From a bacterium (GTDB lineage: Bacteria; Zhuqueibacterota; Zhuqueibacteria; Oceanimicrobiales; Oceanimicrobiaceae): a stretch of 26,250 nt of DNA. Position numbers and translations under genes: made by a program. Below, in pieces: positions 2,023-21,962 of the stretch. The stretch spans positions 1-26,250 of the forward strand of contig JBHHXT010000055.1 of NCBI GenBank assembly GCA_046757165.1. Reading direction: 5' to 3'. Below the pieces are notes generated by a model. That model had not been told where the DNA came from and searched no databases. It saw only the letters and a program-made list of their open reading frames with translations. Each line of letters begins with the position of its first letter. The first letter of the stretch is position 1.

Positions 2023-2592
2023 ATGAAGACTGAGAAAAAAACCCAGCTTTTCAAAGAACAGTACGAAAAGTTGGCTGGCCAGGTGTATGTGACGCAGACT
2101 CCATCTGGTGTCGTGAAGGCGATGCAGGAGATTCTTGCGCAGAGTAAGGCACGAAAAGGCGTGACCACACCTGAGTTCGTAAATTTGCCCCTGCAGCCGC
2201 AGAAACTTTTGACCCCCCAGAACTTTCCCAGGGTCCCATTCGAGATCTGCGATGAATTGTCTCCGCCGGGCATCAACGCCGCAGACGTCGGCGTGAGCGC
2301 TGTCTCGTTTGGAATCGCCTTCACCGGCACGGTCGTGGAGGTGACCGCGAATGATTCGGCCCGGCTGGTTTCGTCGCTGCCGCGGGTGCATGTGGCACTT
2401 TTACCCGGGACTGAGATTGTGCCGTCCCTCGAGGAGGCGGCGCCCAGGCTGCGGAGAATCTATGCCGAGCATCCCGGGAGCTGTCAAATCACCTTTATCT
2501 CCGGACCGAGCCGGACAGCGGATATCGAGATGCGGCTGTTTCTCGGCGTGCATGGGCCGCAAGCGTCTTATGTGATCGTGTGCGATTTTTGA
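2023..2592 (+). CDS. lutC: LUD-domain lactate utilization protein C (LutC/YkgG-like)
   Basis: ADVGVS...GIA.TGTVV, R.VSSLP.VHVA, FISGPSRTADIE..L..GVHGP. Confidence 0.88.
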   Translation: MKTEKKTQLFKEQYEKLAGQVYVTQTPSGVVKAMQEILAQSKARKGVTTPEFVNLPLQPQKLLTPQNFPRVPFEICDELSPPGINAADVGVSAVSFGIAFTGTVVEVTANDSARLVSSLPRVHVALLPGTEIVPSLEEAAPRLRRIYAEHPGSCQITFISGPSRTADIEMRLFLGVHGPQASYVIVCDF

Positions 2593-2608
2593 TCAGCGCG
2601 GCCGGGCC

Positions 2609-2668
2609 TTTCGGTGGGAAAAGCTTTGAGACCACCGAAAATCACCGAAGCCGCCGAAGGTCACCGAA
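2609..2668 (+). repeat. CRCCGAA tandem repeat (4 units) preceded by an inverted copy
   Basis: tttcggtgg (2609-2617) pairs with ccaccgaaa (2632-2640); units at 2633, 2643, 2652 and 2662. Confidence 0.75.
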
Positions 2669-4785
2669 TGACAAATTACGAAGCGCTCAACCACAAGATT
2701 TCCATCTCTCTCGAGCAAGCTTCGCAGCGGGAGGCGTTGCTCAGCGCTGTTGCCCGCGGTCGGGACGCACGGGCTCAAACATTGCAGGATATTCCCGGCG
2801 GCGAGGCGTTCCGCGAGCGGGTATCTCAAATCAAGCAAAGGTGCATTGAGGACCTGCCCGAGCTGATCGCAAGATTCACCCAAAACGCCCGTGCTCGCGG
2901 CGCCACCGTCTATCTTGCCCGCGAAGCCAGGGAAGCGTGCGACTATGTGCTGAATCTGGCCAGAGAAAGAAACGTCAGCCGGATCACGAAATCAAAGTCC
3001 CTGACCACGGAGGAGATCGAGCTAAATCACCCGTTGGAGAAGGCAGGCATCGAGGTCCTGGAAACCGATTTGGGTGAACTGATCATCCAGATGGCTGGCG
3101 AGCTGCCGTACCATCTCGTTTTTCCGGCAGTGCACAAGACAGCCGAGCAGGTCGCAGAGCTGTTTCGCGGCAGGACCGGTGAACCGGTGTCCAGCGACCT
3201 CGGCGAGATCATGGCGCTCATGCGCCGCTATCTCAGGCCGAAGTTTCTGCAGGCTGACATGGGCATCACCGGCGCGAACGTGGCGATTGCAGAGACCGGC
3301 TCTTTGCTGATCGAAACCAACGAAGGCAATGGACGCCTGGTCAGCGCCATTCCGCGCCTGCATGTGGCCGTCGTTGGCATCGAGAAGATCGTGTCGACCA
3401 TCGACCAGGCGCTCCAGTTGATCTTTGCCCATCCGGTCAGCGCCACCGGCCAACTGTTGACCACCTACGTCTCATTTTTCGCTGGCCGTTCGCCCCTGAA
3501 TGCCGAAAAAGATCGCGAGCTTCACATCGTGCTGCTGGACAATGGCCGGCTGCTGATGAGCTCGGATGACGGCTTCCGCGAGGCGCTGCATTGCATTCGC
3601 TGCGGCGCGTGTATGAACATTTGCCCGACGTACGGCGTCCTCGGCGGCCACATTTTTGGCCACATCTATCCCGGTCCAATCGGCATTCCGTGGACAGCAC
3701 AAGTCCACGGCCTGGAGCAGGCTGCTGCGTTCACGGATCTATGCATTTCCTGCGGTCTTTGCAAAGAAATCTGTCCGGCCAACATCGACATTCCCTGGAT
3801 GATCGCCCGTGTGAAGGAAAACGTGCTGGAGCACGCCTCGCAGCCACTGGTGAACAGAGTGCTGATGGCGAGCGAATCCCTGGCCAAATTCGCCTGTGCT
3901 ACTGCGCCGGTCAGCAACTGGCTGCTGCGAAGCAGAGTCGTCAAGGCGTTGACTGAAAAGGTGCTTGGCCTGGATCGGCGGCGCAAGCTGCCAGAATTTG
4001 CGCGCACGACGTTGCGCAAGCGCTTTGTTTGCCGGGCCAAACGGGCACGGGCTTCTGTGAGAAAGGTCGCTTTTTTCGCAGACTATGCGGCCAATTACAC
4101 CGTGCCAGAGCTGGGCATGCAAGCCATCGAGCTCCTTGAACAAGGCCGGGTTGAAGTTTGTCTGCCTGAGCAGAAAGCGAGCGGCTACCCGTATATTTCT
4201 TACGGTGAGCTGGCAAAGGCGCGGCGAGTTGCAGCCTTCAACGTCACAAGGCTCCATCCTCTTGTCGAGCAGGGCTATGAGGTGGTCACGATTGAGCCGA
4301 CGGCCGCATATGCTTTGAAGCAGTGTTATCCGCGCCTGCTGGATAAATCAAAGGCAGCGCGGGCGGTAGCAGACCACACCCATGAATATTTTGAATACCT
4401 CGCGACCCTGGCGCACGATGGGTTTTTGCTCTTTCCCCCGCAAGTCAAAGACAGGCGAAATTTCGGCTTTCATATCCCCTGTCACCAGCATGGCGTCAGC
4501 GGCGGCAGCCAAACCCTGCACCTTTTGCGCTCCATTGGCTTTGATGTCGAGGTCATCGAGACCGGGACGTGCTGTGGCATGGCCGGAACCTTTGGCCTGA
4601 AAGCCGGACCGCTGGGGGTTGAATTATCCACCATGGTCGGCAAACCACTGTTCGAACTGTTTGAAGCCAGGGGAATAGAAGCTATTGTTACGGAAAGCAG
4701 TGTTTGCAAGATACAGTTGCAGGAGGGTACCGGCTTACCCGTCTTTCATCCGTTGCAATTGATCGCAGAGAGCAAATTGGTTTGA
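2668..4785 (+). CDS. lutB: LutB-type iron-sulfur lactate utilization protein fused to a C-terminal CCG (GlpC/LutA-like) region
   Basis: KSKSLTTEEI, ETDLGE.IIQ, NEGNGRL, LLDNGR, CIRCGACMNICP, CISCGLCKEICP; C-terminal HIPCH and CCGMAGTFG. ATG 2668 chosen because the GTG-2614 extension only translates the repeat. Confidence 0.88.
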   Translation: MTNYEALNHKISISLEQASQREALLSAVARGRDARAQTLQDIPGGEAFRERVSQIKQRCIEDLPELIARFTQNARARGATVYLAREAREACDYVLNLARERNVSRITKSKSLTTEEIELNHPLEKAGIEVLETDLGELIIQMAGELPYHLVFPAVHKTAEQVAELFRGRTGEPVSSDLGEIMALMRRYLRPKFLQADMGITGANVAIAETGSLLIETNEGNGRLVSAIPRLHVAVVGIEKIVSTIDQALQLIFAHPVSATGQLLTTYVSFFAGRSPLNAEKDRELHIVLLDNGRLLMSSDDGFREALHCIRCGACMNICPTYGVLGGHIFGHIYPGPIGIPWTAQVHGLEQAAAFTDLCISCGLCKEICPANIDIPWMIARVKENVLEHASQPLVNRVLMASESLAKFACATAPVSNWLLRSRVVKALTEKVLGLDRRRKLPEFARTTLRKRFVCRAKRARASVRKVAFFADYAANYTVPELGMQAIELLEQGRVEVCLPEQKASGYPYISYGELAKARRVAAFNVTRLHPLVEQGYEVVTIEPTAAYALKQCYPRLLDKSKAARAVADHTHEYFEYLATLAHDGFLLFPPQVKDRRNFGFHIPCHQHGVSGGSQTLHLLRSIGFDVEVIETGTCCGMAGTFGLKAGPLGVELSTMVGKPLFELFEARGIEAIVTESSVCKIQLQEGTGLPVFHPLQLIAESKLV

Positions 4786-20341: not shown

Positions 20342-20369
20342 GAGGCCGGATTTGCAGAGTTTTTGATCA

Positions 20370-20446
20370 CGCAAAGCCGCAAAGTCCGCAAAGAAAGAAT
20401 AAGCATCGTTTTTGTTTGAAAGCTTCGTGCTCTTAGCGTCTTTGCG
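20370..20446. repeat. Three CGCAAAG units mirrored by three inverted degenerate units (long imperfect hairpin)
   Basis: CGCAAAG at 20370, 20378, 20387; CTTCGTG 20423, CTTAGCG 20432, CTTTGCG 20440; spacings 8/9 mirrored as 9/8. Confidence 0.8.
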
Positions 20447-20573
20447 GTTAGGACGGAGTGGTCTCTCGGACAAAGTGAACTTTCAGCCCGCTTAGCCCGT
20501 TCAAGAACTCGAATCACACCCTTTATCACAGGATAGCTTTTTCACGATGCGTGACAGGAGGAGTAAGGACAAC

Positions 20574-21734
20574 GTGGCAAAGCGTGAGACCGGAACCGTC
20601 AAGTGGTTCAACCCTACCAGAGGCTATGGGTTTATAGAGAACGAAAACGGGACGGAGATATTTGTCCATCACAACGATATCGAGATGGCCGGCTACCGCC
20701 ATTTGCGCCGCGGCCAGGTGGTGAGCTTTGTTCTGGTGGATGAAGGCGAGGGGCCCAAGGCCATTGAGCTGATGGTCGAGGGCGACCCGGCCATGAGCTC
20801 TGACCTATCACCTGAAGGGACACCGGCCGCTCGGCCCACGCCGGGCTACCATTGCAACGAGATCATCGAGCTCGAAGAGGATCGCGAGCACGAATTCAAA
20901 AGTCTGAAAAATGCCAAGGATCCCATTCGAACCATCACCGAGTACTATGTTGAAAAATACATCAACGCTTTTCTCAACACCAATGGCGGCACCATCTACT
21001 TCGGGATTGATGACGATGGCCGGGTGCAAGGGTTGCGGTTGGACCGGGCTCAGCGCGACCGGCTGCGCACCATTATCAGCAAGCAGATCAACAAGTTCCA
21101 GCCTGCGGTCGAGCCGGACCTCTACAAAATCGAATTCATCGAGGTGCATGACAAGGAGTCAACTTATGTGGTCGAGATCCGGGTTTCGAAGGGCCCGGCC
21201 AACCTGTATATGACCGGCTCACAAAATTTCTACATCCGCCGCGACGGCAGCAATTTCTTGATGCCGTTTGACATGATTCGGGCGCGGTTGCAAGCCCCAC
21301 CACAAGCGCCGGTTCAAAGGCCCGGAGAAAAAAGTGCAGACGCCGGGGCCGGCGACCTGGCTGCGGCAGACCTGGATCTTGGTATTCTGTTGGCCATGAT
21401 CTTCATGAGCTGGAGCGACGAAAAACTATCGGAAAACGACATTAGCCTCATAGAGGAACGGGCGCGGGACGAAGGATTGGATGAGCAAGAAGCGAACATG
21501 CTCATGCAAGCCATCGTTCAGCCGCCGCTTTTGGAGACGGTGGTCTCCTACCTGCCCACACCGGAATCCCGCAAAGCGGCCGCCACCATCGCTTACCTGA
21601 CCGCCCTTTCCGACAGCGTGCTGGCCTCCAAAGAGCTCGCGGCCTTTGACAAAATGTGTGAGGCGTTGCAGATCTCGCAATCGGATCGCGATGAGATTCG
21701 AAAGCTGGGGGAAGGGCAGATTCGGCTGAGGTAG
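20574..21734 (+). CDS. Fusion protein: cold-shock domain + Schlafen/AlbA_2 domain + TerB-like helical domain
   Basis: GTVKWFN..RGYGFI (RNP1) and IFVH (RNP2); EDREHEFKS, AFLNTNGGTIYFGIDDDG, FYIRRDGS; then WSDEKLSEND...ALSDSVLASKE...CEALQI. GTG 20574 after a purine-rich SD (alternative ATG 20547). Confidence 0.82.
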   Translation: MAKRETGTVKWFNPTRGYGFIENENGTEIFVHHNDIEMAGYRHLRRGQVVSFVLVDEGEGPKAIELMVEGDPAMSSDLSPEGTPAARPTPGYHCNEIIELEEDREHEFKSLKNAKDPIRTITEYYVEKYINAFLNTNGGTIYFGIDDDGRVQGLRLDRAQRDRLRTIISKQINKFQPAVEPDLYKIEFIEVHDKESTYVVEIRVSKGPANLYMTGSQNFYIRRDGSNFLMPFDMIRARLQAPPQAPVQRPGEKSADAGAGDLAAADLDLGILLAMIFMSWSDEKLSENDISLIEERARDEGLDEQEANMLMQAIVQPPLLETVVSYLPTPESRKAAATIAYLTALSDSVLASKELAAFDKMCEALQISQSDRDEIRKLGEGQIRLR

Positions 21735-21850
21735 GCGTCCAGAGTCGGTTGCCATGGCTTCACCTCTCACGTCTGATGGTCGTGATTAATCCAGGCACTT
21801 GAAGAAAATGAAGACAATTTGCTGTCAATATAGTGAAAACAATTGATTTA

Positions 21851-21892
21851 GCCACGAATTTTCACGAATTGACACGAATGAATTCCGTGTGG
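21851..21892 (+). repeat. Triple CACGAAT repeat, 10-bp period, with a partial inverted unit
   Basis: CACGAAT at 21853, 21863, 21873, then aattccgtgtgg. Confidence 0.85.
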
Positions 21893-21962
21893 TTTTTTAT
21901 CGGTGTGGAATATTTGACCGTTCCCGACTGCCGGGCGGAACTAACGCAGGTTTACCAAAAAG

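Follow-up and report, generated by a model that had tools for sequence, protein, structure and literature searches.

The locus considered here lies in a stretch of 26,250 nucleotides (the window) from a bacterium of the phylum Zhuqueibacterota. It raises the question of what is done by a single protein in which a cold-shock domain (CSD), a Schlafen/AlbA_2 nuclease domain and a TerB-like domain are joined, and whether it belongs to antiviral defence. By sequence and fold the protein is a prokaryotic Schlafen; its gene is real, its architecture is a new variant, and its evolutionary profile is unusual.

The reading frame is single and uninterrupted on the forward strand (20547/20574-21734; Table 1). 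A Shine-Dalgarno-like stretch precedes the GTG at 20574 and the N-termini of homologues coincide with it, thus the start chosen in a preliminary description of the sequence is the right one. When 8000 candidates were scored in a protein search, 13 other clusters aligned over 91% or more of its length with identities of 55-71%, and therefore the frame did not arise by chance. Two partial clusters were also found, and a profile search added no full-length members to those of the protein search. The GC3 of the gene is 0.707 vs. 0.69-0.76 in its neighbours. Scans for promoters (0 vs. a shuffled mean of 1.0) and terminators (4 vs. 2.2 +/- 1.6 in shuffles) gave nothing above shuffled sequence. The intergenic flanks at 20352-20444 and 21836-21925 carry short dispersed repeats bearing inverted arms, with 27 and 57 other BLASTN matches in the host genome, and these look like REP/MITE-type elements.

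Table 1. Features of the CSD-Schlafen-TerB gene, in window coordinates
Feature	Position	Strand	Remarks
CSD-Schlafen-TerB gene	20574..21734	+	386 aa, GTG start, stop included
Shine-Dalgarno-like stretch AGGAGGAG	20556..20563	+	precedes GTG start; read directly from sequence
Cold-shock domain, bacterial CspA type, RNP1 RGYGFI and RNP2 IFVH	20574..20783	+	Pfam, Foldseek
Variable Pro/Ala linker 1	20784..20846	+	pLDDT <50; poorly conserved
Single-lobe Schlafen/AlbA_2 nuclease domain	20847..21296	+	Pfam; structural matches
Catalytic E-x4-E-x-K motif EDREHEFK (E102, E107, K109)	20877..20900	+	equals SLFN11 E209/E214/K216
D147, third acid, equals SLFN11 D252	21012..21014	+	position counted from SLFN11 alignment
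Variable Pro/Ala linker 2	21297..21362	+	pLDDT <50
TerB-fold (DUF533/TerB-like) acidic helical domain	21363..21731	+	pI ~4.4; Pfam, AlphaFold, Foldseek
D-x6-(D/E) repeats	21417-21440 and 21612-21635	+	in TerB-fold domain

The three-domain anatomy proposed in the preliminary description agrees with Pfam, with structural matches and with a full-length AlphaFold2 model built on 17 sequences (mean pLDDT 79.9, pTM 0.44), and the motifs that it named (RGYGFI, IFVH, EDREHEFK) are all present. The model displays three confident domains and two disordered linkers, both of low confidence (residues 81-97 and 253-271, numbered on a 395-aa form). No fixed packing between the domains is seen in it, so gating of the nuclease by TerB gains no structural support here. 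The CSD (Pfam, residues 6-66, E 1.2e-19, over cut-off) combines the RNP1 and RNP2 aromatic motifs with an OB fold, as in CspA, and matches CspA itself (1mjc) in Foldseek with an rmsd of 1.3; it is 46-52% identical to the four stand-alone Csps of the host. In three relatives, P0007, P0011 (L004:346-1515) and P0015, the CSD is divergent, and they group together in the CSD tree (91/96). Protein P0016 (301 aa, on a 52.9-kb contig) begins at the Schlafen domain, and is either a mis-called start or a form lacking the CSD.

Pfam places SLFN_AlbA_2 at residues 102-229 (E 2.8e-21; 76.7 bits vs. a cut-off of 25.3). The best structural match of this domain is the SAMD9 effector domain (7ksp, Z 15.6, 162 residues), followed by SLFN12, SLFN11 and SLFN5 at Z 12-13; the ESM Atlas offers a Schlafen cluster at 0.76 only, a weak lead. 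There is only one AlbA_2 stretch and no helicase, so that the two-lobed core with linker/helicase of mammalian SLFN11-14 is absent. E102, E107 and K109, and several arginines as well, are invariant in alignment A1 (16 family proteins plus P0018), the triad in 17/17 rows. Profile alignment to SLFN11 (7zel), with the numbering offset fixed from the E209A mutant chain 7zep, sets the triad on E209, E214 and K216; the intact Schlafen motif claimed from the sequence is therefore borne out. These three residues are reported as essential in SLFN11, and D252A as harmless (PMC9482658). At the third acid, D147, aspartate is found in 15 of the 17 rows and asparagine in two (P0007 and P0011). The change D45N is reported to abolish the toxicity of Avs9 (PMC12680541), thus the two relatives with D147N may be impaired.

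TerB domains bind metals. The C-terminal domain is TerB-like, as had been suggested, although its Pfam scores lie below the cut-offs: DUF533 is matched at residues 261-375 of the full protein (E 3.9e-5, below cut-off), and the domain alone gives 22.2 bits vs. a cut-off of 24.4 for TerB (E 1.8e-4) and 25.8 vs. 29.6 for DUF533. TerB is matched by all eight members of alignment A2, and the TerB cut-off is passed by relatives P0071, P0094, P0102 and P0121 and by the L188 protein. Folded alone with AlphaFold (pLDDT 88.9), the domain aligns with 2ou3, a COG3793 tellurite-resistance protein of the TerB family, at Z 13.2 (rmsd 3.1, 121/122 residues), the next unrelated structure reaching Z 8.6 across half the domain; 2ou3 is also ranked first by Foldseek (TM 0.70, E 0.048), and it figures among the structural matches of the full-length model too. 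The two acidic repeats of the preliminary description are unequally kept. The second (D347..E354) stands in 16/16 rows covering it; in the first the acid at 289 is likewise kept in 16/16 rows, but D282 only in 12/16. No PADLOC model matches the C-terminal domain better than E 0.004. TerB has been reported as membrane-associated and proposed to watch the membrane (10.1101/2022.05.11.491447; 10.1101/2025.09.30.679545).

The prokaryotic Schlafens (pSlfn) are among the nearest known systems. Like RorSlfn5 and EcoSlfn7, the gene encodes one AlbA_2 domain, here scoring over the SLFN_AlbA_2 cut-off, with an Ex4(E/D)xK motif and fused accessory domains (the CSD and the TerB-fold domain; putative sensors, as such domains are thought to be in pSlfn). 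The pSlfn catalogue comprises, in the available part of PMC13056530, 5,930 proteins of reference genomes in 55 compositions, with 1,020 fusions left unannotated. The present gene differs from pSlfn1-55 in its uncatalogued composition and in lacking a defence island. No TerB entry occurs among pSlfn1-55 in supplementary file 21 of that paper, where PF00313 is listed once, as Slfn.HATPase.CSD, and PF05099 and PF04391 are absent; 11 further supplementary files gave no relevant match. Variants of the type OB.OB.OB.pSlfn and pSlfn.OB.OB are included in the catalogue (PMC13056530).

Cash (Schlafen-Csx15; PMC13462974) is likewise a single-lobe Schlafen with a C-terminal regulatory domain and an E-D/E-K triad with divalent metal. 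Its sensor, however, is Csx15, which binds cA4 in type III CRISPR loci, and by the same account Cash is an inactive dodecamer activated by cA4 through filament formation; neither Csx15 nor cas genes were detected in the window. TerB and cold-shock terms are absent from the available text and six supplements of that paper (of seven 'csd' matches, the two shown are sequence letters), its seven further clusters do not include the present group, and REHEFK does not occur in its domain table. SLFN11/12/13/14 and the AlbA_2 effectors of SAMD9 and Avs9 share the fold and catalytic residues with this gene which, unlike them, has no second lobe, helicase, SIR2 or STAND NTPase. The SAMD9/Avs9 layout (AlbA_2, then SIR2, STAND NTPase, TPR and OB) is thus absent, the N-terminal CSD being the only OB fold. 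The SAMD9 effector is reported as an anticodon nuclease (PMC10246899). All tested bacterial AlbA_2 clades are described as defence-associated in section 7 of PMC12680541, which makes no mention of this group. On the TerB side, Bunzi, Shango and Dionysus, and the TerB/DUF533 family generally, have a TerB fold with acidic repeats, as here. The three systems are multi-gene, with membrane, helicase or pore partners and, in the available accounts, no Schlafen. The function of TerB in them is given as unknown (10.1101/2022.05.11.491447; 10.1101/2025.09.30.679545). Elsewhere, jukA is accompanied by EcsC-like genes and TerB fusions (10.1101/2022.09.17.508391). The CSD-Schlafen-TerB architecture, which the preliminary description did not match to any described system, is absent from the pSlfn1-55 catalogue and the Cash paper, and no description was found in the literature searched, a body that lacks most subscription papers, bioRxiv supplements and Anantharaman 2012 (Ter domain fusions).

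These precedents bear on the defence role that had been proposed for the gene. It could be a solitary single-gene anti-phage (abortive infection) system, in which infection would be sensed by TerB or the CSD, be it as a disturbed membrane, as a phage protein or as single-stranded nucleic acid, and tRNA would then be destroyed by the Schlafen domain; this is a serious candidate, though on the whole a doubtful one. Such a reading is kept alive by two facts. The prokaryotic Schlafens characterised in the available parts of PMC13056530, PMC12680541 and PMC13462974 are all anti-phage or cell-killing effectors, RorSlfn5, EcoSlfn7 and Cash being phage- or CRISPR-activated (PMC13056530, PMC13462974) and RorSlfn5 a phage-triggered tRNase that requires its Ex4DxK motif (PMC13056530); and TerB, the proposed membrane watcher, is found in Bunzi, Shango and Dionysus. 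CSDs are reported as common in CoCoNuTs (PMC11090510) and occur in retron effectors, and among bacterial Schlafens the nearest relatives carry fused NB-ARC/TPR. The model of the retron type V/Se72 CSD effector is matched here at 45.7 bits vs. a cut-off of 82, and no reverse transcriptase is present among the 18 window ORFs.

The genomic surroundings weigh against an anti-phage role. Co-localisation of homologues with defence islands, a check named in the preliminary description, is seen neither in the window nor in most homologue loci. Gene order in the window is bamA-like, tsaD, VWA-like, ALS-like TPP enzyme, the CSD-Schlafen-TerB gene, DUF255 and thiC. Its 17 other ORFs hold no defence gene save a weak PRTase match to ShosT (E 0.001), which together with the gene's own CSD makes up all PADLOC matches in the 18 window ORFs; no defence gene was thus found within 10 kb, in a window reaching just 4.5 kb downstream of the gene. 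Upstream, at 2023-4785, a LUD-domain gene is followed by a LUD/4Fe-4S/CCG fusion, a lactate-utilisation-type pair.

Around homologues, the order ALS-gene-DUF255 recurs in L001 and L022, DUF255 follows the gene in L002 and thiC follows it in L018 and L003; flanking order differs in L004, L005 and L023. Ten homologue loci comprise 77 ORFs, of which 58 were scanned, the CSD-Schlafen-TerB gene and overlapping frames having been set aside; eight of the 58 gave PADLOC matches at 1e-5. The only full-length defence-like matches are a type II methyltransferase in L025 and, in L004, PDC-S01 at a distance of 2 kb from the gene, the remainder being partial matches to housekeeping folds; several homologue contigs measure 1.6-6 kb, too short for a 10-kb test. 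In G003, a non-carrier, VWA, DUF255 and thiC are contiguous. Two of eight DUF255-upstream regions in other genomes of the family contain, respectively, an XhoI-like R-M pair (L099:1187-2793) and a Phd-YoeB pair (L100:1357-1981), and one of four ALS-downstream regions a DUF4258 gene (L102:3215-3538; 20 ORFs scanned). The flanks of the gene are fluid. The PDC-S01 neighbour and the R-M and Phd-YoeB pairs favour the anti-phage reading, and the want of island context counts against it. No partner genes of a ter operon or of Bunzi, Shango or Dionysus were found among window or homologue neighbours.

Inheritance of the gene likewise argues against an arms-race role. The Schlafen-TerB part is found in 7 of the 21 genomes of the host's family (probably KSB1-type), including 5 of 13 near-complete ones, and not in the other 14; across the 167 genomes of the phylum, other families gave no match. 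Identities across six genome pairs are 68-80% for the Schlafen domain, 72-80% for TsaD and 50-80% for the CSD; for the TerB domain they are 66-77% (five genome pairs). Six of seven carriers form one clade of a TsaD tree (90/93) with no non-carrier inside, G013 falling outside; this tree covers 17 genomes, G003 having been dropped (46% match) and three genomes having no hit. Carrier state requires 2 changes on it vs. a shuffled mean of 5.7, and the carrier clade spans five genera. The tree of the gene itself is weakly supported, recovering only G000/G004/G005 and failing to unite G008 with G019 although they belong to one genus. A recent horizontal acquisition was rejected because of the neighbour-like GC3 and the TsaD tree. 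In conservation the nuclease domain equals TsaD, with strong purifying selection and near-vertical retention outside defence islands. Such retention over five genera of one clade and conservation at the level of TsaD are unusual for arms-race genes, and together with the absence of island context they weaken the defence reading. Among viral contigs, 73 pattern matches were obtained and no relative was confirmed, which also counts against an anti-phage role.

Two points go beyond the preliminary description: the module at the N-terminus can be exchanged, and a protist Schlafen clade stands close to the nuclease domain. As to the first, P0018 of locus L025 retains Schlafen-TerB behind a segment that by eye is Cys/His zinc-finger-like, and L106, from an Anaerolineaceae genome, encodes a degenerate Schlafen lobe, then an active lobe, then TerB. 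The stable core is thus Schlafen-TerB, preceded by a cold-shock domain, a zinc finger or a degenerate second lobe. Regulatory coupling of TerB and nuclease fits with this, since TerB is still fused in the Anaerolineae genome and in L025 despite the changed N-terminus. The L106 gene (L106:241-1686) echoes the two-lobed mammalian core and adjoins uvrA and a stand-alone TerB gene. In the class of G167 (Anaerolineae) the Schlafen-TerB fusion was found in 1 of 401 genomes, and this rarity and scatter across phyla would suit an anti-phage module.

Stand-alone TerB proteins of 145 aa, 56-63% identical to the present TerB domain, form many clusters. In a genome scan with one of them (P0193), L186, the lone match among those listed, proved to be a spurious locus. 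Genome G308 has a stand-alone TerB relative following a gene that matches the PADLOC candidate PDC-S29 (E 5e-13), an adjacency that also favours the anti-phage reading. At L188:167-1318 the PDC-S29-like gene (no Pfam hit), which we take to be EcsC-like, is directly followed by a 147-aa stand-alone TerB relative, and this pair is possibly a small defence system. The partner gene of G308 was not found in five KSB1-type genomes in a search run without a positive control. Besides the present gene, the host carries another Schlafen gene, of generic type (473-aa frame), and two further genes for TerB (G000:C384:2335-2667, G000:C140:6375-6722 and G000:C47:4945-5226).

Weighed together, the inheritance pattern gives slight preference to a stress role over the anti-phage one. 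The gene is tentatively read, at nearly an even call, as encoding a latent, TerB-gated tRNA/RNA endonuclease, an immune-type module domesticated for stress-triggered translation arrest. Nuclease activity, trigger and TerB gating are all inferred. The protein would be a metal-dependent Schlafen endoribonuclease, latent, which a single bacterial lineage has retained to slow translation when stress triggers it. The TerB-fold domain may hold the nuclease off or set its oligomer, and a change in membrane or ion/metal status, sensed via the conserved acidic repeat, could release it. The cold-shock domain would grip and melt single-stranded RNA and present the loops or ends of tRNA, and perhaps mRNA, to the catalytic residues. 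Cleavage would then slow translation and lead to growth arrest, not to obligatory suicide; phage infection could be one trigger, not necessarily the main one. Schlafen biochemistry offers precedents, as the E/E/K triad is reported to bind Mn2+ or Mg2+ and to cut tRNA loops, and single-lobe Schlafens (Cash, RorSlfn5), like SLFN11, are described as having to oligomerise and as held off by a fused domain; for SLFN11, the nuclease needs dimerisation and Mn2+ (PMC9482658). Also, defence genes are not found near 30.4% of pSlfn genes, and roles outside immunity are considered possible by the authors (PMC13056530). Counting against the stress brake are the anti-phage or cell-killing nature of the characterised prokaryotic Schlafens, the 14 of 21 family genomes without the gene, the loss of the first TerB acid in 4/16 rows, and D147N in two relatives, the change that kills Avs9, though D252A is harmless in SLFN11.

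An improbable alternative is a constitutive or low-turnover endonuclease of RNA processing or quality control, in which the CSD would select single-stranded substrates and TerB would do no more than anchor the protein at the membrane or dimerise it. Housekeeping-like conservation and context would suit this, tsaD lying within ~5 kb of the gene in the window, L001 and L003. However, most family members do without the gene and known Schlafens are kept latent. The surroundings of tsaD are fluid in gene order and its proximity is probably plain synteny, so that no functional link was accepted. Less probable still is an RNA-binding protein that acts as a regulator or chaperone and whose Schlafen domain is vestigial or dead as a nuclease. 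Several mammalian Schlafens are reported as inactive (PMC9482658) and D147N occurs in 2/17 rows, but the inactive ones described there lack one of E/E/K, and here all three, plus several arginines, are invariant.

Concerning the protist connection, a search of 1.84 billion representatives gave as best Schlafen-domain matches outside the family many protist proteins and a small number of bacterial-type ones, in which Schlafen is joined to membrane, NB-ARC or TPR parts; of 30 matches looked up, 11 are named protists or protist transcriptomes, one is from an echinoderm and the rest have no taxon. Schlafen trees were built from rows picked by likeness to the query, on an alignment of ~150 columns. 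In a careful tree of 33 rows, the 13 eukaryotic rows (11 named, two assigned by UBA domains) form one clade (96/97) and the KSB1 rows a second (95/88). These two clades, along with six rows of bacterial type, are separated from eight generic bacterial AlbA_2 domains (100/99); a grouping of all 12 bacterial rows is not rejected (p-AU 0.238). A second bacterial group, of methyltransferase-, receiver- and PemK-Schlafen fusions, nests among the eukaryotes in a 56-row tree. The KSB1 group does so in a quick tree of 103 rows, but eukaryote-to-bacterium transfer, which that tree suggests, is not upheld by the careful 33- and 56-row trees.

Protist proteins of the same Schlafen branch come from Paulinella, Lotharella, Muranothrix, Cavostelium, Arcella, Mastigamoeba, Monocercomonoides and Thecamonas. 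They comprise CSD-(CSD)-Schlafen-(UBA) and Schlafen-NB-ARC forms, several with the same CSD-then-Schlafen order as here, but none of them has TerB. Their CSDs are 25-34% identical to the present one, vs. 46-52% for the host Csps, which points to independent CSD-Schlafen fusions; shared descent of the fusion with protists was rejected on this identity, even if the CSD tree, on 64 columns, is weak. A eukaryotic-type CSD(-CSD)-Schlafen family (P0019, P0053, P0057, P0061, P0063, P0076, P0111, P0124, P0140, P0160 and P0225) includes some members with UBA and C-terminal zinc fingers, and among its members those with names belong to Rhizaria and a ciliate; neither a description of this family nor a functional study of the protist proteins listed above was found in the literature searched. 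P0043 (Paratrimastix pyriformis, 2478 aa) joins a GCN2-like kinase (RWD, kinase, HisRS-like) to a Schlafen domain of the same subfamily (residues ~1704-1835, motif intact), so that one chain combines a tRNA sensor with a likely tRNA nuclease.

These relationships allow a bolder and rather unlikely reading, that the protein is a bacterial Schlafen domesticated for a role outside immunity, a tRNA nuclease gated by TerB which shuts down translation under envelope or ion stress. It would come from the small bacterial branch that among those sampled is nearest to, and possibly the source of, the pan-protist clade. That branch would consist of KSB1 and Anaerolineae-type Schlafen-TerB, and CSD-Schlafen and GCN2-Schlafen fusions would have arisen again in protists. 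If true, it would supply a direct nuclease read-out for TerB sensing and, in bacteria, a model of how the stress-linked Schlafens of eukaryotes arose.

The role of the roughly 30% of prokaryotic Schlafens outside defence islands is left unexplained in the available part of PMC13056530, and the present small soluble protein, with its conservation and its fixation in one clade, is well suited to a test of that role. TerB is part of three validated defence systems whose mechanism is described as unknown, and fusion to a nuclease provides it with an output that can be measured. How near the nuclease domain stands to a wide protist Schlafen clade, together with the repeated uptake of cold-shock domains, bears on the origin of eukaryotic Schlafens.
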